Under the pieces are notes generated by a model. The model saw only the letters and a list, made by a program, of their open reading frames with translations. It was not told where the DNA came from and ran no database searches. Below are positions 1 to 11,316 of a DNA stretch of 13,633 bases, piece by piece. The stretch is from the NCBI GenBank assembly GCA_964425145.1, contig CAYRLQ010000098.1:1-13633 (forward strand), written 5' to 3'. Origin of the DNA: an uncultured Nitrospiraceae bacterium (lineage in GTDB: Bacteria > Hydrogenedentota > Hydrogenedentia > Hydrogenedentales > SLHB01). Numbering within the stretch: position 1 is the stretch's first letter; each line of letters starts with the position of its first letter. Made by a program: the position numbers and the translations under genes.

Positions 1-232
1 GTCATTACGCCCATTTTACCACCAATCAACTTCGCACTATGCACTGTGCACCGTGCACCGTACACTGTCATTACGCCCATATTGCCACCAATCAACTTCG
101 CACTATGCACTGTGCACCGTACACTGTCATTACGCCCATTTTGTCACCAATCAACTTCGCACTATGCACTGTGCACCGTGCACTGTCATTACGCCCATTT
201 TACCACCAATCAACTTCGCACTATGCACTGTT
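1..232. repeat. Tandem direct repeat with a 59-bp unit, at least 4 copies (66, 59, 59 and 48 bp partial). The array begins at the window edge and probably continues upstream of it.
   Basis: Read directly. The unit gtcattacgcccattttaccaccaatcaacttcgcactatgcactgtgcaccgtacact recurs at 1, 67, 126 and 185 with a few substitutions and one 7-bp internal duplication (gcaccgt) in copy 1. There are no unique spacers between copies, so this is not a CRISPR array. Confidence 0.9.
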
Positions 233-932
233 AAACCCGGACCGCCAAAAAATGGAAATAAGGCAGGAACAGGAATTCCAGACCGTCAGTTAGTTCGACT
301 AACTCAGGTACGGCGAAGATCGAGTCGGGAAGGGCCGACTCCAAGGGCCGGGCCGGGTGAACGCCGCAGGCCACACGGAAGCCGGCGCGCATCAATTCCC
401 CGCCCAACTTGCGTCCGATTTCGATGTCGGCGCCATCGGCTGCAAGGGTCTCAGCAAGCCGTCCCATTTGTCCGTGTTCGGTCGGATGCTCCACCGCCCC
501 GCTGTAATCAGGCTCGGCGGCGGCGATAAGATGCCCGCCGGGAGCGAGAACGCGCCTGAGCTCTGCGAGAATCTCCTTCAAGGGGCGCGCCCAGAGGAAG
601 AACATCTGCGTGAAGACCAGATCGAATGTTGCGTTTTGAAAAGGCAGCGACTCGGCCTGGCCGGCAACGCGCCTCCCGGCGGCGAGACGCAGCGTGCCGA
701 TCTCAGAGTCCACACCTACCGCGAAGCCCCGCGCGCGGCGATCGAGTTCGCAAAGGGTCTCGCCAGTGCCCGCGCCAAGGTCCAGCACACGCCTCTTGGA
801 GGCGATGTTGACCTTGCGCAGCAGCCTGCTGCGCTCGCCGGCAAACCAGGCTGCCTGGCGCCGATAAATCTTTTGCAGGTCCGCGGGCTTCAAGGACTTC
901 CCCTCTAACAACCGGGAACTGACGACTAGCAA
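231..932 (-). CDS. Class I SAM-dependent methyltransferase (Methyltransf_11/25-like), last gene of the operon. TTG start as given in the ORF track; the exact start is uncertain.
   Basis: Translation contains the glycine-rich SAM-binding motif I VLDLGAGTGE, the acidic post-I residue in GVDSE, and LAPGGHLIAAAEP (motif III/post-II), a typical Rossmann-fold MTase layout. A 7-bp gap separates it from the upstream gene. Confidence 0.7.
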   Translation of the reverse strand: MLVVSSRLLEGKSLKPADLQKIYRRQAAWFAGERSRLLRKVNIASKRRVLDLGAGTGETLCELDRRARGFAVGVDSEIGTLRLAAGRRVAGQAESLPFQNATFDLVFTQMFFLWARPLKEILAELRRVLAPGGHLIAAAEPDYSGAVEHPTEHGQMGRLAETLAADGADIEIGRKLGGELMRAGFRVACGVHPARPLESALPDSIFAVPELVELTDGLEFLFLPYFHFLAVRV

Positions 933-939
933 CTATCAG

Positions 940-2775
940 CTACCGTCCGCCACCGGCGCAGGCGCAGGCGCAGGCGCAACCGGCGCAGGCACAGCCTCCT
1001 CCGCCTCCGCCTCCGCTGCCGCCGCCCTCGGACAGTTGTGAGAGAAAGTCGCTGGTGAACTGGTCGAAGCGGGAGAGGTCGAGGCCGCCTTTGGCGGTTC
1101 TGCCTAGCGAGTCGAGGCTGCCCGCCAAGCTGCTACACGTGTTCTCCAGGCGCCCGGCCAGCGAGTTCGCCACATCGCCGAAGGACGTAGCCGGTGTGCT
1201 TGGGCCACGGGATGCACCGGCTCGCCCGGGCGCGGCAGTGTAGGTTCCGTGGCCCCGGCCGTACCACCAGTGGGGATAATAGTGGTGGCCACCGCCGACA
1301 TCCCGGAGCTCGCGGTCCCAGTGGTCCTCCAGCATCAGCCAGCCCAGGTGCTTGTCCACGCGCTTGAAGCCGGCCTCATAGCCGGCCTCGGTCTTTACCT
1401 GCTTCCAGGCCCGGGCGACGATGCGCTTGTAATAGTCACGGGTCTGCTTCAGGTCGAATCCGGCCATGGCGCCCATGGTAAACTTGATGAGGCAATCGAA
1501 CGCATCGTCCAGGTTTATCTCCTCGACCGTTTTCCCTTGCTGGGCCTGGAATGCGTGTATAAAGCCCTTTTCATAGTGCCTGAGCTTCCCGCGCTTTCCG
1601 TCGGGCCGCGTCCAGATGTCCCCTGGCGATTCCTCGCCGGTCACCTCCAGCTTGAGCGGTTTGTCATAGCGGACGCGGACCACGCCCTTCTTGGCCAGGC
1701 CGAAGATGACCATGGTCAACACCTTGTGAAGCGGCACATCGAGGAGGATGGCCGCCTCGACGGAGGTGAGGCCGCGCTTTATTCCACCGCCCTCGATGCA
1801 GAGCTCTGCGGGGAAGTAGCGCTCCTTGCGCCGCGCGCGGAGGATGTACGCCAGTACGCCGAGTGCCACTACGATCGGATACAGGCATAGGTGAAATGTG
1901 GGGCTACGGTACATGCCATAACCCAGAATGACCGTCAGGACGATGAGCACGGACCAGCCGGTCCCGCGAGTGGTCTGGAAGAAGATGATGGCGAAAATCA
2001 CGATGAGCGCAATGCCGCTGATAACCTGGGCTTCCCGGCTGTCCTTGAACCACCTGTTGAAGAGGCCCCAGAGGGTATCCTTTCGCACCGCGCTGACGTA
2101 GCGCTTGGGAAAGGATACGCCGAACACGTGTTTCCCGGTCAGGCGCACGGTGCGCACCCAGGCCGCCGAGACAACCTCCTCGCCTTCCATGACACCCTTG
2201 GCGCTGAATTCCTGGCCCTTCTTATGCCAGAGGATGTCGTCTTTCACGGCTGCATAGTCGGCCTTGGGTATGGGCAGCTTGTAGCGCAGAATCAACTTGG
2301 TATTGCCCACAACGTACTGAGACCCAAACCAGGTGGGCGTAAAACGGAAGGATGCCAGTTCGGGGTTGGTCGTGTCCTGCCAGACCATGTTGCGCTCGCG
2401 CGCGGTAAATTCGAAGACACCGGTTTGGCCCGGGCGGACGGTCTGCGGTCCCAGATGAATCTCGTAGCCGCACCCCTTGGGTTTGAGGTAGGTGGAAATC
2501 TTGATGCTGCTACGCGGAAGCGGCTGGCCGTTGACGCTCGCGCTGCCCGGTGTGTGCGGCGCCATGTTGGGCATGCCGATGTCGACGATGTCGATGGGAT
2601 GGGCGCCGCGGTTGCAACTGAACGTCAGCTTGTAATAGACCAGGGCCGAGCCGTCCTCCTCGATGGTTACGGTGACCTGCGCCTCCGGGACGGAGAATTT
2701 GTATTCCGCGGCCAGCGCGGCACGGGCAGGCATAAGGCCCAGGACCAAAAGTATAACGGGCGCGAGTCCCTTCAT
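940..2775 (-). CDS. DUF2207-like integral membrane protein: signal peptide, large extracytoplasmic domain, 3 TM helices, then a cytoplasmic tail ending in poly-Gly followed by a (Cys-Ala)n repeat.
   Basis: N-terminal signal peptide MKGLAPVILLVLGLMPARAALA. Hydrophobic helices at AQVISGIALIVIFAIIFF, WSVLIVLTVILGYGMY and LYPIVVALGVLAYIL. C-terminus ...SEGGGSGGGGGGGCACAGCACACACAGGGR. The overall architecture and Gly-rich tail are as in Pfam DUF2207 proteins; this family call is from memory, not a search. Its ATG lies 9 nt after a GGAGGG that forms the last codons of the upstream rSAM gene. Confidence 0.5.
   Translation of the reverse strand: MKGLAPVILLVLGLMPARAALAAEYKFSVPEAQVTVTIEEDGSALVYYKLTFSCNRGAHPIDIVDIGMPNMAPHTPGSASVNGQPLPRSSIKISTYLKPKGCGYEIHLGPQTVRPGQTGVFEFTARERNMVWQDTTNPELASFRFTPTWFGSQYVVGNTKLILRYKLPIPKADYAAVKDDILWHKKGQEFSAKGVMEGEEVVSAAWVRTVRLTGKHVFGVSFPKRYVSAVRKDTLWGLFNRWFKDSREAQVISGIALIVIFAIIFFQTTRGTGWSVLIVLTVILGYGMYRSPTFHLCLYPIVVALGVLAYILRARRKERYFPAELCIEGGGIKRGLTSVEAAILLDVPLHKVLTMVIFGLAKKGVVRVRYDKPLKLEVTGEESPGDIWTRPDGKRGKLRHYEKGFIHAFQAQQGKTVEEINLDDAFDCLIKFTMGAMAGFDLKQTRDYYKRIVARAWKQVKTEAGYEAGFKRVDKHLGWLMLEDHWDRELRDVGGGHHYYPHWWYGRGHGTYTAAPGRAGASRGPSTPATSFGDVANSLAGRLENTCSSLAGSLDSLGRTAKGGLDLSRFDQFTSDFLSQLSEGGGSGGGGGGGCACAGCACACACAGGGR
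955..1014. repeat. Hexanucleotide microsatellites inside the 3' end of the DUF2207 gene. (GGCGCA)n at 955..993 encodes the Cys-Ala repeat. (CTCCGC)n at ~994..1014 encodes the poly-Gly run.
   Basis: Read directly: ggcgcaggcgcaggcgcaggcgcaaccggcgcaggcacagcc followed by tcctccgcctccgcctccgct. Confidence 0.8.
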
Positions 2776-2781
2776 GGTCTC

Positions 2782-4191
2782 TTAACCCTCCGATGGACTG
2801 TCAGTGCACAGGAAGCGATCGCCGTCACTGAGCGGACAGCCCGAGCCGCACACCTCGAAGTCCGGACACTCGCGGCACGCGTCAGGGGCTGCATCGCGGC
2901 TGCGAACCTCGCGAAAAAGCGGGCTGTTCCAAATCGACTTCCACTCATCGTCCAGAATGTGGCCGACGGGCTTGTAGTAGCTCTGACATGGGATAACCCG
3001 CCCGTCGGGCTCGATGCAGATGTTGTACTCCGCGGCTGTGCAGCGCTTGAAACCCAGGCCGAAGGTCGTCGGGTTCAGTGTACAGTAGTGAGTGGGGGTG
3101 TACCAGATGAAACGGAGGCCGAGCTTTTCTGCCGTGCCCGTGACCTCGCCGAGAATGGGCTCGAGGTCCGCTTCCTCGATGCCCAGCCCCGATTGGGGGG
3201 CCTTGCCCGTGTATATCAGGGAGTTCATGGCGAATTGCCGCACGCCCAACTCCTTCAGGAACTCGATGGTCTTATCGATCGCTTCAACATTCAGCCTGCA
3301 CAGCGTCGTGTTGGTCACCAGGTAGAGGTCGTCATCGATGGCGTTCTTGATGCCCTGCACCGTCTCCTCGAACGCGCCGGGGCAGCCGACCATCTGGTCG
3401 TGGACCTGCTTATCGTGGCTCTCGATAGTGATTTGCACGTGGTCGAGGCCGGCGGCGCAGAGCTTCCTGACGTACTCGCGGTCAGCGAGCTTCCTGCCAT
3501 TGGTGAGGAGTCCGGTGATAATGCCGATGTCCTCGGCCCGCTCAGTGAGTTCCACGAGATGGGGGCTCAGCGTGGCCTCGCCGCCCGTGAAGCACACGTG
3601 GGGTACGCCTATGCCCCACAGCTTTTCGAGAACATGCTTCCACTCTCTCACGCCGAGAGGCTTTACTTCGTCCGGCCGGCGGGCGACATAGCAGTGCAGG
3701 CACTTGTTGTTGCAGGCGTACGTCAGCGCCAGGTCGGCACGGTAGGGCGCCGAGACCTTCCGACCGAAAGGCGGCACAGTGGATACACCCAAGTTGGCGA
3801 CCGGACAGGCGTCCTCCGTGGTCTCCAACTGCTCTACGACCTTGAGGACCTTCCCGTAGTCGCGCGCCACCTCCTCGTGGGCGGCCCGGTAGACCTTACG
3901 CACCGCCGCCACCGCCTCATCCCTGCTCTTGCCGTCGAGGACCTGCTTCATGAGCGCCACGGCGGTTGCGTTGAGGTGCAGCACACCGGACGCGTTCACA
4001 GCCAGAAGGCCCGAGCCGTCCGGGTCCACGCGCAGGTGCAGGCGCAGATAGCGGTCGGCCAATTCGCGGCGGTAATGATAGATGCCGGGCTGCACAGCCT
4101 CGGCACCGGCGAAGAGCCGTTGGAACTTCTCACGCAGGCCTACCATTTGGGTGCCTCCTCGATCTGGTACTCGGATTGGCAGAAAGGGCAT
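2782..4191 (-). CDS. Radical SAM / SPASM-domain enzyme with a fused N-terminal PqqD-like RRE (RiPP recognition element); a peptide- or protein-modifying maturase. Alternative start at 4146 (MVGLREK...), which overlaps the upstream stop in ATGGTAG.
   Basis: CX3CX2C radical-SAM cluster motif (ALTYACNNKCLHCYV). C-terminal SPASM signature CRECPDFEVCGSGC (CX2CX5CX3C), preceded by CTAAEYNICIEPDGRVIPC and followed by FLC. The N-terminal ~120 aa (LRVDPDGSGLLAVNASGVLHLNATAVALMKQVLDGKSRDEAVAAV) match the PqqD/RRE fold pattern. The same domain order is found in AlbA/SuiB/CteB-type enzymes. Confidence 0.85.
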   Translation of the reverse strand: MPFLPIRVPDRGGTQMVGLREKFQRLFAGAEAVQPGIYHYRRELADRYLRLHLRVDPDGSGLLAVNASGVLHLNATAVALMKQVLDGKSRDEAVAAVRKVYRAAHEEVARDYGKVLKVVEQLETTEDACPVANLGVSTVPPFGRKVSAPYRADLALTYACNNKCLHCYVARRPDEVKPLGVREWKHVLEKLWGIGVPHVCFTGGEATLSPHLVELTERAEDIGIITGLLTNGRKLADREYVRKLCAAGLDHVQITIESHDKQVHDQMVGCPGAFEETVQGIKNAIDDDLYLVTNTTLCRLNVEAIDKTIEFLKELGVRQFAMNSLIYTGKAPQSGLGIEEADLEPILGEVTGTAEKLGLRFIWYTPTHYCTLNPTTFGLGFKRCTAAEYNICIEPDGRVIPCQSYYKPVGHILDDEWKSIWNSPLFREVRSRDAAPDACRECPDFEVCGSGCPLSDGDRFLCTDSPSEG

Positions 4192-4487
4192 TTCACGAAG
4201 ATCGCCCCGGCCCGAACCGAAACGCTCTTTGCGTCGAGGGCCGCGCCGCAGCTCTTACAGTTGAGTTCTTCGAGTTGCACGTCGCCGGACAGGTCGATCT
4301 TTCGGGTAACGGTGACCTTGGTCTCTGGCACTTTCATCCGCAGGAAGTAGATCACGGCTATCCCCGCACCGGTCAGGATGCCGCCAAGAATCCAGCGCGG
4401 CCAAATGCCGCTGCTGGCTGCTGCAACGCAGAACATGAGGCCTAATAGCACTAACAAGCCGGCGAAAAGATACCCGACAATCTTCAT
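4140..4487 (-). CDS. Small membrane protein with two N-terminal TM helices and a C-terminal zinc ribbon (CxxC-x18-CxxC).
   Basis: Hydrophobic segments IVGYLFAGLLVLLGLMFCVAAA and ILGGILTGAGIAVIYFL. Zinc ribbon CKSCGAALD...KCPFCQ. ATG at 4487, 17 nt after the stop of the SPFH gene. Its stop overlaps the 4146 start of the rSAM gene. Confidence 0.6.
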   Translation of the reverse strand: MKIVGYLFAGLLVLLGLMFCVAAASSGIWPRWILGGILTGAGIAVIYFLRMKVPETKVTVTRKIDLSGDVQLEELNCKSCGAALDAKSVSVRAGAIFVKCPFCQSEYQIEEAPKW

Positions 4488-4504
4488 CAGGACACCGCTC
4501 CGCG

Positions 4505-5698
4505 TTACGAATTACCAGGTTGGTCCGGCGCAGTTGGATGCACCGGCGGCGCCTCGAGGTTCTGGCCGCAGTCGGGGCAGAACTTGCTGCCCGCGGGGCT
4601 GATCGCCTGGCAGGCAGGGCATACCTCCGGCCCGATCTTAGCACCGCAACTCGAGCAGAACTTGCTATTGGGGTCGATGTCCGCCCCGCATTTGGGGCAC
4701 TTGGCCGTCGTCTCGCCGCTCAGGGGCTTGCCGCAGCCGGCGCAGAACCTGGCGGCGGGCGCATTCTGGTGCTTACAGGCCGGGCAAATCGAGACGCCCG
4801 TGGCCTGGGCCGCGCCGAGTTGCCCCCCCATCACGCCGCCAAGCATCCCGGGCATCATGTGGCCTACGCCGAAGCCGAGGCCCAGCCCCATGCCGGCGCC
4901 CATGATCTGCCCGGCGCCGCCCTCACTCTCGGCGGCCTTCTCGAGCGTGTCGAAGGTGCGTTTCATGCGGTACTTGTCCTCGCCCATGATGTCGATGTCC
5001 GCGCGCGCCGAGAGCGACTGTTTGAGCTTTACTACCGTCGCGTCATCTTCGGGCACGTCGATGGACATCAGCAGGAAGTCGGTGATCTCGAGGCCGTACT
5101 TGGTGAAATTCTCGGCCGTGCGGGCCTTACCGACGGCGGAGGCTTCCTCGAGGTAGGCGGCGATCTCGACGACTGACACCCGCTGCTTGATGATCACCTC
5201 GGCGATGTAATCCTTGAGCCGGGTGGTAATCGCTCCCTTCAGGTAGGTGCTGATGTCCTCGGTGGTGTAGAGTCGGTTTTGGCCGCAGATCACCGTTACG
5301 AAGGTCTTGGAATCGGCCACGCGCATGCCGAAGATGCCGAAGCAGCGCACAGGAACGACCACGTTGAACCTGGGGTCCATCACCTGGATGGGCGCCCGGG
5401 TGCCGAACTTGATGTCTGGAACAGTGCTCTTACTGACGAAGTAGACCTCGGCCGTAAAGGGCGTCTGGCCACCGAAAGGCAGAGCGATCAGTTCCCTAAG
5501 ACCCGGCAAATTGGCCGTGCTCAGCGTGTGCCGTCCAGGCCCGAACACGTCCAGCCCACGGCCCTCCCGGAAGATGACCGCATCCTGGGTTTCGTTCACG
5601 ATCACTTGGGTGGCGGTCGACAAGTTGTCCTGCGGGAACTTCCAGACCAGTTCGCGCGGGCTACCCTCGAACTTGACCCTGTCGATGAATGCGGCCAT
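4505..5698 (-). CDS. SPFH/band-7 (stomatin/prohibitin/flotillin) family protein with a Gly/Met-rich linker and three tandem C-terminal double zinc ribbons; COG4260 / Bacillus subtilis YdjI-like.
   Basis: N-terminal VWKFPQDNLSTATQVIVNETQDAVIFREGR and the following β-rich SPFH core resemble YdjI-type proteins (from memory). A low-complexity GAGMGLGLGFGVGHMMPGMLGGVMGG linker follows. Three repeats of CPxC-x10-12-FCxxCG follow: CPACK...FCAGCG, CPKCG...FCSSCG, CPACQ...FCPDCG. Strong SD AAGGAGGG lies 6 nt upstream of the ATG. Confidence 0.7.
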   Translation of the reverse strand: MAAFIDRVKFEGSPRELVWKFPQDNLSTATQVIVNETQDAVIFREGRGLDVFGPGRHTLSTANLPGLRELIALPFGGQTPFTAEVYFVSKSTVPDIKFGTRAPIQVMDPRFNVVVPVRCFGIFGMRVADSKTFVTVICGQNRLYTTEDISTYLKGAITTRLKDYIAEVIIKQRVSVVEIAAYLEEASAVGKARTAENFTKYGLEITDFLLMSIDVPEDDATVVKLKQSLSARADIDIMGEDKYRMKRTFDTLEKAAESEGGAGQIMGAGMGLGLGFGVGHMMPGMLGGVMGGQLGAAQATGVSICPACKHQNAPAARFCAGCGKPLSGETTAKCPKCGADIDPNSKFCSSCGAKIGPEVCPACQAISPAGSKFCPDCGQNLEAPPVHPTAPDQPGNS

Positions 5699-5735: not shown

Positions 5736-6263
5736 TCAGGTAGCGGCAGGTGACGACCAGCCACCCGCAACCTCTCCTAGGCATTTCTTTCGTTGATCGA
5801 ACTGGCGCTCAAATGTCGCCAACGCGGCCTCGAGCCGGTCTGGACCCATCTCCAGCACTACATCGGCGGCGCCCTCGACCTCGGCAAGCTGTTCAAACAT
5901 GCAGCGGTCGTAGGCCAGAAGCCGCGCCAGGTCCTGCTGGCGTATTTTGACCTTGGCGGAAATCGCGCTGTGACCGTAATCGGCGAAGCGCACCTTGTTG
6001 GCGGCCTTGTCGACCAGGTTGAGCAAACGCTCGAGAGCGGCGAGCCCTGCGCCCGCGCGGACATCTTCGCCCGCCGCCTTGATGGCCTTGTTCACCGGTG
6101 TTTTGGCCTCAGACAGCCGCCGGGCGATCTCATCGCGAATCATCTTATCAGCTTCCCAGATGGTGGTATTCTCGAGATATCCCCGGAACACAGGGACCTG
6201 TGCCATTTGCTCGGCGAGCCATCCCCGGTCGGCTTTCATCCGCTGCAGAAGCTTGTCTTCCAT
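5736..6263 (-). CDS. Hypothetical all-alpha-helical cytoplasmic protein (175 aa), first gene of the operon. Start moved to the internal ATG at 6263, which is preceded by GGGAGGAGG.
   Basis: The ORF track gives 5736..6323, but the ATG at 6263 (MEDKLLQRMK...) has a near-perfect Shine-Dalgarno GGAGGAGG 6 nt upstream. No recognised domain; predicted helical and charged. It lacks the PspA/IM30 N-terminal signature. Confidence 0.5.
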   Translation of the reverse strand: MEDKLLQRMKADRGWLAEQMAQVPVFRGYLENTTIWEADKMIRDEIARRLSEAKTPVNKAIKAAGEDVRAGAGLAALERLLNLVDKAANKVRFADYGHSAISAKVKIRQQDLARLLAYDRCMFEQLAEVEGAADVVLEMGPDRLEAALATFERQFDQRKKCLGEVAGGWSSPAAT

Positions 6264-6399
6264 TTCAGACCTCCTCCCGGAATGGGCCGGCGCCTCCGGT
6301 TGCGAAACGACGAGCACGAGCACGTATGGATTGACACGTCTAGTGTCCCCGGCACTCGATTACTCCACAAGCACCCCGTCGCGCCATGGAACCGATCCC

Positions 6400-6471: not shown

Positions 6472-7725
6472 CTATTCGTGCAGGCGCTCGATGTGGCCGC
6501 CCAAAGTTGCCAAGCGCTCTTCAATACGTTCGTAGCCCCGGTCAAGGTGGTACACGCGCGAGATGACCGTCTCGCCCCTTTCGGCGGCGAGTCCGGCGAT
6601 GATGAGGGCAGCGCTTGCTCGCAGGTCCGATGCCATGACGGGCGCGCCGCTCAGATGGGAGACGCCGCGGACGATGGCCGCGTTGCCGTCCAGGTGAATG
6701 TCAGCGCCCATGCGTTTGAGTTCCGCCACTTGCATGAACCGGTTTTCGAAGACGGTTTCCTTGATAACGCTGACGCCTTCGGCCAGGCAAAGCAGGGCCA
6801 TCATCTGGGCCTGAAGGTCCGTGGGAAACCTTGGAAACGGCCCGGTCGCGACATCCACGGCACGCAGCGCGTTGGGCGCGGAAGCCCGAATTCGAGCGCC
6901 GTGCACTTCGACCTCGGCGCCGGCGGCCTCGAGTTTCTCGAGGAAGTTTGGCAAGTGGGTCGCGTCGGCGTTTTCCACAATCACATCGCCGTGCGTGGCC
7001 ACACCGGCAAGAAGAAATGAGCCCGCCTCGATACGGTCCGGGATCACGGTGTGTTCGGCGCCGCCCAGCGCGCCCACGCCGGTAATTGTGATCTGGTCCG
7101 CGCCCGCGCCGGAGATACGCGCGCCCAGCGCGTTGAGAAACCGGGCCAGGTCTACGATCTCGGGCTCACGGGCCGCATTGCCCAGACGTGTGACCCCTTC
7201 GGCCCGGCACGCCGCCATCATGAGGTTCTCCGTCGCGCCGACGCTCGGGAACTTGAGGTGGACATTCGCACCTTTGAGCCGTCCTTCGGCTATAACATAG
7301 CCGTCCTCGATGGCAATTCGGGCCCCAAGTGCTTCAAGTCCTTTGAGGTGAATGTCGACCGGACGGGTGCCGATGGCGCAACCACCCGGCAGCGACACGT
7401 GCGCGCGGCCAAACCGCCCCAGCAACGGCCCCAGCACGAAAAAAGTCGCCCGCATCTTCCGCACCAGGTCGTAATGAGCCTTCTGGGAAGTAATCGTGGA
7501 TGCGTCGAGCGTCGCCGTGTGCTGCACAAACTTGCTGGTGACGCCCATAGATGACAGGAGCTTTTCCATCGAATAGACGTCGGCCAGGCAAGGGACATTG
7601 TGCAGCACGCACGGTTCCTCGGCCAAGATGGTCGCCGCCATCAGGGGCAGGGCCGAGTTCTTCGCACCGCGCACGGGCACGCTACCTCGCAACGGCGTGC
7701 CGCCCTGTATCCGAATCTTATCCAC
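6472..7725 (-). CDS. murA: UDP-N-acetylglucosamine 1-carboxyvinyltransferase (MurA), GTG start.
   Basis: 417 aa. N-terminal [28 protein letters not shown], the active-site Cys loop [16 protein letters not shown], and full-length EPSP-synthase-like fold-family pattern. Confidence 0.9.
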
Positions 7726-8002: not shown

Positions 8003-8617
8003 TCAGGCGCCGCCTGCTGAGTCCTCGGGCTGCTCGGCGGGTGTAGGTTGTTGTTCAGCCGGGACCGGCTCGGGCGCCACGGTGACGGTCACCGTGCCAG
8101 GCGGCTCGGTGGTTTCCCCAGGTGCGGCCCCTTCGGTGGGAGGCACTTCCGGCGGTACGGTAACGGTCACTTCGCCGGCCTGCTCAGCGGCTCCCTCAGG
8201 TGGCGGGGGCACCGCTTTTTCCCCCGGGACAGCCTCGGAACCCTCGACGGCCGTGCCGAGGTCATCGAGCATGTCGTCGAGGCTTTCTCCTAATACGCCC
8301 ATCTCTCCCAGGACATCGGCCTCTTCGACCTTGTCCGGGGCGATGCCCTTGCCAAGGCGCCCCGATACCAGGGACATGGCCAAGGCGAGGATCATGAACA
8401 CGGCGGCCATGACGTGGGTCAGCCGAACGGGCAGACTCTGGCTTGCCCGGGGACCGAACACCGTGTCCGAGCCGGGGCCGATGCCAAATGCGCCGGCGAA
8501 GCCGGTCCCTTTGCCCTTTTGCAACAGGACAATCACGATGAGGCCGGCGCAACTGGGCACGTAGAGGATCAACATCAGCCACCACAACGTTTCCCAACGC
8601 CAGATGAATTCCCACAT
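8003..8617 (-). CDS. secG: Preprotein translocase subunit SecG with an unusually long (~110 aa) Pro/Thr/Glu/Val-rich low-complexity C-terminal extension.
   Basis: SecG signature LLQKGKGTGFAGAFGIGPGSDTVFGPRASQ....THVMAAVFMILALAMSLV, with two TM helices. Position immediately after tpiA (27-bp gap) matches the conserved tpiA-secG synteny. SD AAGGAAAA lies upstream of the ATG at 8617. Confidence 0.75.
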   Translation of the reverse strand: MWEFIWRWETLWWLMLILYVPSCAGLIVIVLLQKGKGTGFAGAFGIGPGSDTVFGPRASQSLPVRLTHVMAAVFMILALAMSLVSGRLGKGIAPDKVEEADVLGEMGVLGESLDDMLDDLGTAVEGSEAVPGEKAVPPPPEGAAEQAGEVTVTVPPEVPPTEGAAPGETTEPPGTVTVTVAPEPVPAEQQPTPAEQPEDSAGGA

Positions 8618-8644: not shown

Positions 8645-9400
8645 CTAAACCGCCGCCTTGACGATGGCGGCGAAACTATCGGCCTTGAGCGAGGCGCCCC
8701 CGACCAGCGCGCCGTCCACATCGGGTTTGGCCATCAACTCGGCCGCGTTATCCGGTTTAACGCTGCCGCCGTATTGAATTCGGACTTGCTCCGCAACGGC
8801 TTCCCCGAACTCCTCGGCCACAAGCCCCCGCACAAACGCGTGGGCCTCCTCGGCCTGCTCCGGGGTTGCAGTAACACCAGTGCCGATGGCCCAGACGGGT
8901 TCATATGCGATGGCGAGCTTGTCGAAATCGGTTCCAGCCAGGTTGACGAGGCCATCAGCGACTTGGCGCCTCAACACGTCGTTCATCCTGCCGCCTTCAC
9001 GCTCCTCAAGGCTCTCGCCGACGCAGAACATAACCTTCAACCCAGCAGCCAGGGCGAACTTAACCTTCTCGTTCAAGAAGGCGTCGGATTCCTTGAAATA
9101 CTGGCGACGTTCGCTATGGCCGACAATGGTCCACGTGCATCCCACGTCCAGCAGCATCTGCGGTGAAATTTCACCCGTATAGGCGCCGCTTTCCTTGGTG
9201 TAACAGTTCTGGCCGCCCATCTCGACGTTTGACCCCCTGAGGGCTTCACCGACGGCATACAGCGCCGCAAAAGTCGGGCAAACCACCACATCAACGGTCG
9301 AGACGTCCCGAGCGAGCGGCTTGATGGCATTGACCAGGCCGACGGCGTCGCCGACCCGCAGATTCATCTTCCAATTTCCAGCGACAAGCGGTTTTCTCAC
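8645..9400 (-). CDS. tpiA: Triosephosphate isomerase. Start moved to the GTG at 9400; the ORF-track start at 9529 is an upstream in-frame extension.
   Basis: The conserved TIM N-terminus RKPLVAGNWKMN begins directly after GTG (9400..9398), which is preceded by GAAGGG. Catalytic and loop motifs present: NAIKPL..., IVGHSERR, VIACVGE-like FCVGESLEERE, IAYEPVWAIGTG, and the QYGGSV phosphate-binding loop. Confidence 0.9.
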   Translation of the reverse strand: MRKPLVAGNWKMNLRVGDAVGLVNAIKPLARDVSTVDVVVCPTFAALYAVGEALRGSNVEMGGQNCYTKESGAYTGEISPQMLLDVGCTWTIVGHSERRQYFKESDAFLNEKVKFALAAGLKVMFCVGESLEEREGGRMNDVLRRQVADGLVNLAGTDFDKLAIAYEPVWAIGTGVTATPEQAEEAHAFVRGLVAEEFGEAVAEQVRIQYGGSVKPDNAAELMAKPDVDGALVGGASLKADSFAAIVKAAV

Positions 9401-9536
9401 GGCAATACCCTTCGCTAAACAGCTACGACAGCCCTGCAAATCCTGCCCGAATCGTAGCACAACCTCTCGGAACAACGCAAGATGAGTTGCTGGCAGTCCA
9501 CTGCTGGTGGCCGGTTTTTCAACCGGCAACTATTAA

Positions 9537-9834: not shown

Positions 9835-11316
9835 ATGAGAAAATGGAGCTTGATGATTCTATTGACAGTGCTCGTTGCCATTGCGAGCCAGGCCGAGCTG
9901 CAGAATGTCGAGGCTGGTCCGGTTATACAGCGCCGACTCGACGTGAAGCTCGTGGATCCGCTCAAAGGCGCGTTCGAGGGGGCCGAGACGACCCTCGAGA
10001 ACCAAACAGACCTTGCCGTGACCGTGTATAATAACAACCTGGCGCTCGTGCGGGACCGGCGCAAGGTCGAGCTGTATCCGGGCCATGTTTCGTTGCAGTT
10101 TGCGGATGTCGCACAACAAATCCGGCCGGAAACGGTGAGCCTGGAGTCAATTTCGGAGCCGGGAAAGCTGCATATCCTGGAACAGAACTATGAGTATGAC
10201 CTGATGAGCCCGTCAAAGTTGATGGAGAAATACGTTGGGAAACCGGTGCGGCTGGTGAATTTCAGCACGGAGATCGGGTTCACCGAGGTCGAGGCGCAAC
10301 TGTTGAGCATCAATGAGGGCCCGATCTACCAGGTGGGCGATGAAATCTACCTTGGACATCCGGGCCACGTGGTGCTGCCGGAAATCCCCGAGAACCTGAT
10401 CGCGAAGCCGTCGCTGATCTGGCTCCTGGACAATGATGGCACGGACCATGAGATCGAGGTGACATACCTGACCGGCGGCATCGACTGGCGTGCGGATTAC
10501 GTGATCACGCTGGACCGCGACGAGACCACGATGGACCTGACGGGCTGGGTGACCCTCAAGAATCAATCAGGCGCGACGTATACCAATACGCGGTTGAAAG
10601 TGGTCGCGGGCGAGGTACACATCGCGCAACCGGCCGTCAGAGAAGCCTATGGCCGCGGCGGGCGGATGCTCGCGGCCAAGGTCGCTCCGATGCGCGAGGA
10701 AACGTTTGCGGAATATCATCTGTACACACTCCCGCGCCGGACCACGATCAAAGAGAACCAATCCAAACAGGTGAACCTGCTCAGCGCTGCGGGAATTCGC
10801 GCGAAGAAGGTATACGAGTTTCGCGGCAACGAATCGTTCTATAGCGGACCCGTGCCACCCCTGAAGGACCAGAAAGTGGCAGTGTTTCTCAAATTCACTA
10901 ACAAGAAGGAGAATCAATTGGGCATTCCCCTGCCGGCGGGCGTGATGCGGATTTACCAGGAGGACAGCGAGGGGATGCGGCAGTTCGCGGGCGAGGATCG
11001 CATCAAGCATACGCCCAAGGACGAGGATGTGAGGCTGCGGATGGGCAACGCGTTCGATGTGGTCGGCGAGCGCGTGCAGACCGATTACGAGCGTGTCGCG
11101 GAAAAGGTGCACGAATCGGCCTTCGAGATCAAAATCCGCAACCACAAAGAAAACGACATTACCGTGGATATCGTCGAACCGATGACGGGCGATTGGAAGA
11201 TCCTGAGCAAGTCCCACGACTTCGTGAAAAAAGATGCGCGCACGGCCGTGTTCTCCGTCCCCGTGGCCCAGGACGGCGAAGCGGTGGTGACTTACCGCGT
11301 CCGTGTCAGGTATTAG
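9835..11316 (+). CDS. Secreted DUF4139/DUF4140-domain protein (TIGR02231 'mucoidy inhibitor MuiA'-like family).
   Basis: Signal peptide MRKWSLMILLTVLVAIASQA; SD GGAGAGG 5 nt upstream of the ATG. Long β-rich protein with motifs recalled from DUF4139 proteins: VTYLTGGIDWRADYV, MDLTGWVTLKNQSGATYTNTRLKVVAGEV. Family call is from memory. Confidence 0.55.
   Translation: MRKWSLMILLTVLVAIASQAELQNVEAGPVIQRRLDVKLVDPLKGAFEGAETTLENQTDLAVTVYNNNLALVRDRRKVELYPGHVSLQFADVAQQIRPETVSLESISEPGKLHILEQNYEYDLMSPSKLMEKYVGKPVRLVNFSTEIGFTEVEAQLLSINEGPIYQVGDEIYLGHPGHVVLPEIPENLIAKPSLIWLLDNDGTDHEIEVTYLTGGIDWRADYVITLDRDETTMDLTGWVTLKNQSGATYTNTRLKVVAGEVHIAQPAVREAYGRGGRMLAAKVAPMREETFAEYHLYTLPRRTTIKENQSKQVNLLSAAGIRAKKVYEFRGNESFYSGPVPPLKDQKVAVFLKFTNKKENQLGIPLPAGVMRIYQEDSEGMRQFAGEDRIKHTPKDEDVRLRMGNAFDVVGERVQTDYERVAEKVHESAFEIKIRNHKENDITVDIVEPMTGDWKILSKSHDFVKKDARTAVFSVPVAQDGEAVVTYRVRVRY

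Follow-up and report, generated by a model that had tools for sequence, protein, structure and literature searches.

Which molecule is modified by a radical SAM/SPASM enzyme that has no precursor peptide encoded beside it? This question is raised by the gene of one such enzyme, rSAM-A, in a bacterial DNA stretch of 13,633 nucleotides (the window, that is, the whole stretch analysed here). RRE-dependent radical SAM/SPASM enzymes are known almost exclusively as makers of small secreted peptides. Based on domain profiles, structural models and the comparison of related loci, we consider rSAM-A to be a protein maturase whose substrate is the cytoplasmic C-terminal tail of BIG1, a membrane protein encoded downstream (with a probability of roughly 0.6). 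The likely substrate is therefore part of a conserved membrane protein of about 600 aa and not a secreted peptide, and the locus speaks for a system of protein modification that is widespread but undescribed, not for an orphan peptide-antibiotic enzyme. The genes considered are the following.

231 to 932, minus strand: class I SAM-dependent methyltransferase, conserved last gene of the cassette (Methyltransf_11, 57.8 bits)
940 to 2775, minus strand: BIG1, a 611-aa membrane protein, proposed substrate (features from the sequence and the model)
2782 to 4146, minus strand: rSAM-A, a radical SAM/SPASM enzyme of 454 aa whose N-terminal part is a PqqD-type RRE (Pfam, homologue lengths, Shine-Dalgarno sequence, AF2, Foldseek)
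4140 to 4487, minus strand: ZnTM, a protein of 115 aa that ends in EEAPKW and has a cytoplasmic zinc ribbon (CxxCG...CPxC) and two TM helices
4505 to 5698, minus strand: SPFH/Band_7_1 protein with C-terminal double zinc ribbons (Pfam match)
5736 to 6323, minus strand: LIMLP_15305-like protein, 195 aa, whose gene opens the co-directional block (NCBIfam score 59 bits, cut-off 210)

The enzyme, its reading frame and its domains

A preliminary description of this DNA had left two starts open for the enzyme gene, 4191 and 4146, the latter giving an ATGGTAG coupling with the upstream gene. The ambiguity is real (an ORF from 2782 to 4191 on the minus strand is present), and it is settled in favour of ATG 4146, because nearly all of the best 120 rSAM-A homologues are 450-456 aa long, a GAGGAGG Shine-Dalgarno sequence lies 7 nt 5' of this codon, and the ATG overlaps the TGG-TAG end of the upstream gene; the start at 4191 is ruled out on the same grounds. 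The sequence P0001 (454 aa) is 100% identical to rSAM-A of the window. An 819-aa ORF on the plus strand (1891-4350), antisense to the rSAM-A and BIG1 genes, was treated as a GC-rich shadow ORF, and an Rfam search of the window revealed no RNA family.

The domains and motifs of rSAM-A were located as follows.

2806 to 3084, minus strand: SPASM region with cysteines C355, C369, C377, C387, C424, C427, C433, C437 and C447 (PF13186, conservation)
3691 to 3714, minus strand: CX3CX2C motif CNNKCLHC, C145/C149/C152 (sequence; invariant in 63 of 63 sequences)
3817 to 4089, minus strand: PqqD-like RRE, residues ~20-110 (PF05402, AF2 strands and helices, invariant residues)
3841 to 4008, minus strand: Pfam PqqD match within the RRE, residues 47-102

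By its motif, its match to Radical_SAM (PF04055, 85 bits against a cut-off of 29.5) and its modelled barrel, rSAM-A belongs to the radical SAM superfamily. The Pfam SPASM profile (PF13186) was matched with 47 bits (cut-off 21.5). In an alignment of 63 sequences, the four cysteines of the CX2CX5CX3C motif (C424/C427/C433/C437), C369 and C387 are invariant, and C355, C377 and C447 are at least 90% conserved; the cysteine set is thus full for two predicted auxiliary [4Fe-4S] clusters. Membership among the RREs was judged by a profile match together with a winged-helix fold built from three beta strands and as many helices. The PqqD profile (PF05402) scored 26.8-26.9 bits, above its gathering score of 23.4, and was matched by 52 of the 63 family members (E<=1e-3), while the AF2 model (pLDDT 88.5, and above 90 in the barrel) has four beta strands (21-58) followed by three helices (60-109) in the N-domain. 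Residues R35, L38, R39, A52 and D96 of this domain are invariant in the 63 sequences. By profile and fold, the N-domain is a PqqD-like RRE, for which leader binding is predicted. The top Foldseek matches of the model were SkfB, SuiB and CteB, aligned over 405-467 columns. The preliminary description had read an N-terminal PqqD-like RRE, a canonical CX3CX2C core and a CX2CX5CX3C SPASM domain from the letters, and had called for profile searches for SPASM and PqqD and for a structure prediction of the N-domain; both profiles exceeded their Pfam cut-offs, the predicted strands and helices agree, and all three assignments stand.

The Cys-Ala tail and its linkage to the enzyme

BIG1 combines a signal peptide, an ecto-domain folded as a beta-sandwich and three TM helices with a cytoplasmic domain; it also contains a leader-like segment, a Gly linker and a Cys-Ala tail. 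Two of these parts concern the enzyme.

943 to 993, minus strand: invariant tail CACAGCACACACAGGGR, residues 595-611, proposed core (homologue ends, column identity)
994 to 1194, minus strand: leader-like segment (528-584) and Gly-rich linker (585-594), proposed RRE docking site (conservation, model)

The last 17 residues of BIG1 follow the pattern (CA)2G(CA)4GGGR, so that the Cys-Ala tail earlier ascribed to the neighbouring protein is indeed present; the label DUF2207 given to that protein is not borne out, since no DUF2207 profile was matched even at E<=10, where the Pfam search gave only two insignificant TM-region matches, neither of them DUF2207. BIG1 has no Pfam match at E<=0.01 and no NCBIfam match, and BIG2 and the T3 variant likewise have no Pfam match.

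The same tail string ends 118 of the 120 best BIG1 homologues, which are 35-65% identical overall, and a CA tail ends 119 of the 150 best cluster representatives (the remainder are mostly fragments or near variants). It is carried by at least 119 genome loci. The tail columns are 100% identical, against a mean column identity of 0.53 across BIG1, and the tail is the only invariant stretch of the protein, conserved more strictly than most enzyme active sites. It is encoded by 124 distinct DNA versions out of 125, with synonymous sites varying freely; the tail is thus conserved at the protein level and not at the DNA level, and a TGCGCC microsatellite was rejected as its cause.

The leader-like segment contains the motifs F/DV..S..GR.E and (V/I/L)DLSG.D..T, in which L567 and D571 are invariant and S568 is nearly so, and its conservation is 0.60-0.70, against 0.13-0.44 in adjacent blocks. 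The segment was modelled as low-confidence helices. Disorder or low confidence was predicted for both the tail and the leader-like region, as is usual for free leader and core peptides. Because of the signal peptide, the three TM helices and an RARRKERY stretch, the tail is predicted to lie in the cytoplasm, which is also the compartment of the enzyme.

The rSAM-A and tail genes are reciprocally linked across about ten phyla. Viewed from the tail, an rSAM homologue lies upstream in 59 of the 64 tail loci that have at least 3.4 kb of upstream sequence; viewed from the enzyme, a same-strand CA-tail ORF adjoins 23 of the 27 rSAM-A loci with full flanks, although gene order differs among these loci. 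The exceptions are five tail loci without an upstream rSAM, namely three or four orphan BIG genes (L018, L080, L083 and L092) and a tandem second copy (L022), and four rSAM-A loci without a tail ORF. The rSAM-A sequences cluster according to the type of tail, identities being 49-69% within a type and 41-46% between types; a permuted tail, (CA)4G(CA)3GGGR, is found in related loci. Related loci also encode a catalytically dead rSAM paralogue (type B), which has lost CX3CX2C and kept the RRE. Only this inactive paralogue is present at 14 of the 64 tail loci, and an active enzyme would therefore have to act there in trans.

The tail is identical in bacteria of about ten phyla (Chloroflexota, Planctomycetota, Armatimonadota, Hydrogenedentota, Elusimicrobiota, Sumerlaeota, Zipacnadia, Myxococcota and gut Firmicutes are represented), and at 50% identity the tail-bearing family falls into more than 1000 clusters. 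Conservation of the cassette extends over Hydrogenedentota, Brocadiia and Elusimicrobiota. Firmicutes carry a shorter protein with the same tail motif, and the gene directly upstream of it encodes an active rSAM/SPASM enzyme; Hungatella hathewayi is one cultured carrier of the tail system, suited to native proteomics.

As for the other genes, the methyltransferase gene is found downstream of the tail in 66 of the 102 loci that could be assessed, and among NCBIfam models it scores best with the DVU_1556 family (68 bits, cut-off 155). The SPFH/Band_7_1 gene is a lineage-specific operon member, with the same gene order in the related loci L001 and L002, and the LIMLP_15305-like gene has a 173-aa counterpart at the same position in L001. 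No protease, exporter, metal transporter or lipid-synthesis gene was found in the cassette. An anti-phage defence system was rejected, PADLOC showing generic likeness only (between the rSAM core and viperin, and between the methyltransferase and mad2).

Candidate substrates and proposed chemistry

The preliminary description had sought the substrate in a segment of a neighbouring protein and had named the Cys-Ala tail first; the invariance of the tail, its conservation at the protein level and the reciprocal linkage support this choice. In the mechanism that we propose, the RRE would dock on the leader-like segment (…DV..S..GR.E … DLSG.D..T…) ahead of the flexible poly-Gly linker, so that this segment would be a leader built into BIG1 itself, and the linker would feed the Cys-Ala repeat into the active site. 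There rSAM-A would reductively cleave SAM and abstract H atoms from the tail, acting repeatedly along the repeat in the manner of PapB on CX3D repeats, and the products would most likely be intramolecular thioether bridges from Cys-S to Ala or Gly carbons. Thioether cross-linking is our best guess because SkfB, a sactisynthase, is the closest solved relative and only Cys, Ala and Gly side chains are available; epimerisation or Cys oxidation may occur instead. The co-operonic methyltransferase would add a further modification, and ZnTM, translationally coupled to rSAM-A and proposed as its membrane adaptor or partner, would hold the enzyme at the membrane beside its substrate. In the other lineages, the dead paralogue that keeps its RRE is probably a chaperone or scaffold for the tail.

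Several other explanations were weighed against this one. The tail might itself bind metal or Fe-S clusters, as a metallothionein-like module or as a carrier of clusters or sulfur; the rSAM enzyme would then act on something else, for example a lipid or small molecule at the membrane, and would use its RRE-like domain only for docking on the membrane protein. Its seven alternating cysteines are a classic thiolate-rich ligand set, it is disordered in the model, orphan BIG genes without an adjacent rSAM occur, and the weak SPASM relatives include the non-peptide enzymes BlsE and GDGT-MAS. However, the invariance extends to the Ala, Gly and Arg residues and to the number of repeats, whereas metal sites usually tolerate spacer substitutions; the RRE is conserved and of the peptide-binding type, the best full-length structural matches are peptide maturases, and the cassette lacks metal transporter and lipid-synthesis genes. 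We regard such a role of the tail as unlikely. The zinc-ribbon protein, which the preliminary description had also offered as a substrate, is less likely still: on this reading, ZnTM would be the real substrate (for example, through its C-terminal EExPxW) and BIG1 only a co-operonic partner, but ZnTM is missing from loci where rSAM-A, the CA-tail protein and the methyltransferase are kept (L003, L004, L040 and L075; 6 of 29 rSAM-A loci). In addition, the Lys before the terminal Trp is variable (PTW, PQW, PLW and PIW), and a folded zinc ribbon would be an unusual core peptide. These points make this substrate improbable to us, although ZnTM is confined to loci with active rSAM-A (it occurs in 23 of these 29 loci and in 0 of the 5 with type B only), its stop overlaps the rSAM-A start, its C-terminus is strongly conserved (terminal W in 56 of 56 sequences), SPASM enzymes that cross-link Lys-Trp and Trp-Gly-Lys exist, and rSAM-A has a structural match to SuiB and a score of 88 bits, far below the cut-off, for WgkB.

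A classical RiPP system, with a short precursor that is unannotated or encoded elsewhere in the genome, appears very improbable. RRE-rSAM-SPASM enzymes usually act on short precursors, and a search with the last 50 residues of BIG1 yielded 28 short matches of 51-87 aa, leader-plus-core-like, proteins of 65-87 aa among them. These short proteins, however, come from the 3' parts of BIG genes that are frameshifted in long-read assemblies, and they were rejected as stand-alone precursors, three of them lying on long contigs and being overlapped by upstream ORFs. The window likewise leaves no room for a precursor gene: the gaps between rSAM-A and its two neighbours are 6 nt and -7 nt, and every ORF of at least 20 aa in 2700-4560 is nested within a bigger gene. 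The earlier observation that no short precursor gene adjoins the enzyme is thus upheld, and the small unannotated ORF suggested as another possible substrate has no free-standing counterpart. With the protease and exporter absent too, the locus is not a classical RiPP gene cluster; what resembles a leader and a core here is the C-terminus of a protein of 611 aa. To an enzyme of a cofactor or housekeeping pathway (PqqE, MftC, AhbD/NirJ or anSME), with its substrate encoded elsewhere, we give next to no weight. The rSAM-A family is broadly distributed and fairly well conserved, and its top NCBIfam partial matches are AhbD (TIGR04545, 122 against a cut-off of 500) and PqqE (TIGR02109, 119.5 against 381), and MftC (TIGR03962) scores 86.5 against 265; but every score falls short of its curated cut-off by a factor of 3 to 10, the rSAM-A neighbours include no pqq, mft or ahb genes, heme-synthesis and sulfatase genes are likewise absent nearby, and the fused RRE with its conserved cassette is found in none of those enzymes. 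An anSME is likewise rejected, because rSAM-A has an RRE, no sulfatase gene is present, and the tail lacks the C/S-x-P/A-x-R motif; the profile match to the anSME structure 4k37 covers the SPASM part only (E 9e-7). The preliminary description had made its reading depend on rSAM-A being no orthologue of PqqE, MftC or anSME, and this agrees with what was found.

Modification of the BIG1 tail by rSAM-A thus remains our preferred reading. A wider reading, for and against which the odds seem to us about even, takes the locus as the type locus of an undescribed protein modification system of many phyla, in which a rSAM/SPASM enzyme, guided by a leader within its substrate, rewrites the invariant alternating Cys-Ala tail of a conserved membrane protein into a new structure, often helped by a methyltransferase, a zinc-ribbon adaptor in the membrane and a paralogue that is catalytically dead. 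This structure could be a 'ladder' of polycyclic thioethers, a segment in which D and L residues alternate, or a metal-binding cofactor derived from the peptide. Pfam and NCBIfam hold no curated family for the tail protein or for the rSAM-A subfamily, and our literature search found no paper on the tail, the tail protein or the subfamily. For enzymologists, the tail is a defined substrate within reach of peptide synthesis, with likely new chemistry on a sequence of only Cys, Ala and Gly; cell biologists gain access through it to a membrane protein of unknown function that is widespread, mostly in uncultured phyla.

Comparison with known radical SAM enzymes

The closest solved relatives of rSAM-A are SkfB, SuiB and CteB. 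SkfB is the best PDB match in sequence (profile E 3.3e-29) as well as in fold (6efn, E 6.8e-19, 405 columns), CteB (5why) was aligned with the model over 451 columns, and SuiB was aligned full-length (467 columns, TMq 0.67). The likeness to SkfB in sequence and fold is modest, and PqqE, the second-best sequence match, is nearly as close. Among the sactipeptide and ranthipeptide maturases considered, which included StsB (NF045574), the equivalog level was reached for none; SkfB (TIGR04403) gave 86.4 against a cut-off of 300 and AlbA (NF012164) 77.5 against 850.

SuiB/StrB (streptide, Lys-Trp) and PqqE (Glu-Tyr C-C) are RRE-dependent SPASM enzymes, as rSAM-A is predicted to be, although PqqD is a separate protein in pqq operons. 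However, the tail has no aromatic, Lys or Glu residues, and the chemistry of SuiB and PqqE is therefore impossible on it. For the type-B paralogue, the 'pseudo-SAM/SPASM' family TIGR04347 is a precedent of SPASM-family paralogues without CX3CX2C, but type B scores only 22.9 bits against its cut-off of 525, and the window has no type-B gene. The systems QhpD/QhpC and anSME/sulfatase are SPASM precedents for the modification, in the cytoplasm, of Cys-containing segments of functional proteins, that is, of protein subunits and not of natural-product peptides. The anSME structure matches the rSAM-A model over 343 columns; these systems are nevertheless not orthologous to it. Moreover, anSME has no RRE, no amine dehydrogenase or sulfatase genes lie nearby, and the CxPxR/CxAxR motif is absent.

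The PapB/freyrasin-type enzymes are iterative ranthipeptide maturases, and the likeness proposed here is that of one rSAM/SPASM enzyme acting on a short Cys-containing repeat; the Cys-Ala repeat differs in having no acidic acceptor and in being embedded in a protein. With the thioether synthases SkfB, CteB and AlbA, rSAM-A shares the architecture of RRE, radical SAM and SPASM/twitch domains and a Cys-rich candidate substrate, whereas thioether formation is putative here and the cassette is without their protease and exporter. In short, the substrate of those enzymes is a short secreted peptide with a hypervariable core, whereas the candidate substrate of rSAM-A is the C-terminus of a membrane protein of about 600 aa, and its core is invariant across phyla.

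Gene block and surroundings

Tightly packed, co-directional genes on the minus strand of the window include the radical SAM enzyme (rSAM-A), the membrane protein BIG and the small protein ZnTM, and the closest named relatives are Hydrogenedentota MAGs.

Genes in the window (coordinates, strand, product)
6323-5736, -, LIMLP_15305-like protein
5698-4505, -, SPFH/Band_7_1 protein with double zinc ribbons
4487-4140, -, ZnTM, 115 aa, two TM helices, zinc ribbon at the C-terminus
4146-2782, -, radical SAM enzyme (rSAM-A)
2775-940, -, BIG, 611-aa membrane protein
932-231, -, class I methyltransferase
6472-7725, -, MurA-like (by eye)
8003-8617, -, SecG-like, with a long Pro/Glu-rich C-terminal extension (by eye)
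8645-9529, -, triose-phosphate-isomerase-like, with an N-terminal extension (by eye)
9835-11316, +, DUF4139/MuiA-like protein

The genes flanking the cassette look like housekeeping genes, and thus the locus is chromosomal rather than an obvious mobile island. Positions 1-231, directly downstream of the methyltransferase gene, contain a tandem repeat (59-nt period, 3.7 copies, 84-94% matches); having no spacers, it is not CRISPR-like. The coding strand is GC-rich (about 62%), and an 819-aa ORF at 1891-4350 (+), antisense to the genes for the enzyme and the membrane protein, is most likely its shadow ORF.

The preliminary description wavered between two starts of the enzyme gene, 4191 and 4146, and the ATG at 4146 is the correct one: homologues are nearly all 450-456 aa in length, the databases contain an identical protein of 454 aa, and GAGGAGG lies 7 nt upstream, whereas a start at 4191 would overlap the ZnTM gene by 52 nt. 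The ATG at 4146 overlaps the TGG-TAG end of the ZnTM gene, which suggests translational coupling. A short adjacent precursor gene had been reported missing, and we also could not find any: 6 nt separate the enzyme stop from the BIG start, and every small ORF in window 2700-4560 is nested within a larger gene. Some 'proteins' of 69-87 aa that end in the tail of BIG (related loci L205-L207) were rejected as precursors, being the 3' ends of genes broken by frameshifts in long-read assemblies; such fragments are a trap for precursor-mining pipelines.

Domains, fold and relatives of the enzyme

The enzyme matched the Pfam profiles Radical_SAM (85 bits), SPASM (47 bits) and PqqD (26.8 bits; gathering score, 23.4), bearing out the earlier reading of a radical SAM core and a SPASM domain preceded by a PqqD-like recognition element (RRE). 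Across an alignment of 63 family members, Radical_SAM and SPASM were matched in all 63 and PqqD in 52 (E <= 1e-3). Invariant in this alignment are the cysteines of CX3CX2C (C145/C149/C152) and of the SPASM motif CX2CX5CX3C (C424/C427/C433/C437), further cysteines upstream of the latter, and the N-domain residues R35, L38, R39, A52 and D96. The AF2 model (pLDDT 88.5, pTM 0.88) places strands (21-58) and then three helices (60-109) N-terminal to the barrel. Foldseek alignments with SkfB (E 6.8e-19), SuiB (467 columns, TMq 0.67) and CteB, all three-domain RiPP maturases, extend over the full chain, whereas those with the RRE-less PqqE, anSME and BlsE cover just about 320-345 columns. By sequence profile, SkfB was the closest of the solved proteins (3.3e-29), followed by PqqE (3.4e-24). 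No NCBIfam model reached its cut-off, the scores being 122 against 500 for AhbD, 119.5 against 381 for PqqE, 86.5 against 265 for MftC, and 86 against 300 for SkfB. The enzyme is therefore an orthologue of no known enzyme, including PqqE and MftC, which had been raised as competing identities, and belongs to an uncurated subfamily.

The Cys-Ala tail and its linkage to the enzyme

BIG matched nothing in Pfam or NCBIfam, and the DUF2207 label given to it earlier is not supported by sequence profile, as that family gave no Pfam match even at E <= 10. Its structure model (pLDDT 82) comprises a signal peptide and three TM helices, after which come RARRKERY, two helices modelled with low confidence (532-558 and 570-584), a linker rich in Gly and finally the tail, which is disordered; tail and enzyme are both cytoplasmic. 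The final 17 residues, CACAGCACACACAGGGR, are identical in BIG orthologues of three phyla and terminate 118 of the 120 best BIG homologues (overall identity, 35-65%), the identity per column being 100% in the tail and 0.53 on average. At 50% identity, an exhaustive BIG profile search yielded 1113 clusters; among the 150 best representatives, 119 end in a Cys-Ala tail, and the others are mostly fragments or single-substitution variants. Degenerate back-translation of the tail located at least 119 genome loci. Among the matches listed, 124 different DNA sequences, in which all synonymous codons are used, encode the 125 tail occurrences; selection therefore acts on the peptide and not on a DNA repeat. 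Upstream of the linker, a conserved segment (…F.DV..S..GR.E… and (V/I/L)DLSG.D..T, with L567 and D571 invariant) resembles a leader joined to its core.

Because the genome scan was made in fixed 8-kb blocks among the matches listed, the co-occurrence fractions are estimates; on this basis, of the 64 tails for which 3.4 kb or more of upstream sequence was available, 59 have a homologue of the window enzyme upstream on the same strand. Conversely, when 80 metagenomic loci were fetched by the enzyme profile, a Cys-Ala-tail ORF lay on the same strand in 23 of the 27 with full flanks. Most of these 23 loci have a different gene order (ZnTM, BIG2, rSAM, methyltransferase) and a permuted tail, (CA)4G(CA)3GGGR; a third type of tail has the sequence C[VI]CACAxCACACACVSCACACA[GH]GGAR. 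Enzyme and tail remain paired even where genes are rearranged and tails permuted, which strongly supports a functional couple; the enzyme sequences also cluster by tail type.

BIG2, a second subfamily of the tail-bearing protein (L126-L203; e.g. L128 1251-2939 and L164 4412-6004), shows 25-34% identity, has its gene upstream of that for the enzyme, and differs from BIG in its pre-tail motif, FT..VT..TNPPP. A shorter form of gut Firmicutes (327-370 aa, one ecto-domain; L045 3855-4838, L081, L103 and L047 7538-7903) carries GGGCACACAGCACACACAGGGRAGCSxKDF past the last TM helix, the Cys-Ala motif being internal and followed by AGCSxKDF. It adjoins an active rSAM/SPASM gene in Ruminococcaceae and Lachnospiraceae MAGs; at L045 an active rSAM/SPASM gene (462 aa) directly precedes it, with no methyltransferase there, and L047 belongs to a cultured carrier, Hungatella hathewayi WAL-18680.

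Tandem pairs of tail-bearing genes, with tails about 1.9 kb apart, follow one rSAM gene set at L022, L036, L042, L070, L096 and L108, and other family members (P0301, P0320 and P0332) have two tandem ecto-domains and an unchanged tail.

Accessory proteins, proposed modification and known systems

Many loci, though not those of the window lineage, which has the active enzyme only, encode a paralogue (type B) with 25-31% identity to the window enzyme, whose gene either stands alone beside the tail-bearing gene or separates it from that of the active enzyme. Since CX3CX2C is missing from 56 of 60 type-B sequences while the RRE-like N-domain is retained, type B is a pseudo-radical-SAM protein (e.g. 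L030 3782-5143, L043 4279-3077 and L171 7359-8504); the SPASM motif is present in 40 sequences. In P0281 (948 aa), a type-B protein (N-terminal ~340 aa) is fused to a tail-bearing membrane protein, which may reflect a Rosetta-stone link or the loss of a stop codon. ZnTM accompanies the active type only (an estimated 23 of 29 such loci versus none of five type-B-only loci) and is absent from some complete cassettes, and is thus read as a membrane adaptor and not a substrate. Its knuckles (CxxCG…CPxC) resemble those of rubredoxin, and its C-terminus is invariably …EExPxW (terminal Trp in 56/56, PKW in 45/56); this motif could serve in docking, or ZnTM could donate electrons to the enzyme. A methyltransferase gene follows the tail gene in an estimated 66 of 102 assessable loci, its product being weakly similar to characterised enzymes including the RiPP C-terminal methyltransferase LahSB (28 bits).

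The tail had been put forward as a candidate substrate, a proposal that its invariance and reciprocal linkage favour, and we infer that the enzyme modifies it. The RRE would dock on the leader-like segment of BIG, the Gly linker would feed the Cys-Ala repeat into the active site, the enzyme would act on it iteratively, and the methyltransferase would contribute a second modification. Our favoured guess for the product is thioethers from Cys-S to Ala or Gly carbons, because SkfB is the nearest relative, CteB also matches in structure, and no residues other than Cys, Ala, Gly and Arg are available in the tail; the outcome may instead be epimerised residues, oxidised Cys or a metal-binding cofactor. 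The main rival to modification is that the tail is a plain set of metal or Fe-S ligands, which its invariant non-Cys positions and repeat counts make less likely.

We found no curated family that covers BIG, its BIG2 counterpart or the Firmicutes form, all database names read 'hypothetical protein', and full-text literature searches found no paper on this system, which has probably been overlooked because its carriers are nearly all uncultured MAGs. In short, the enzyme class is already known, and what appears to be new is the type of substrate, an invariant core within a large conserved membrane protein, together with a cassette that includes a dead paralogue, ZnTM and a methyltransferase.
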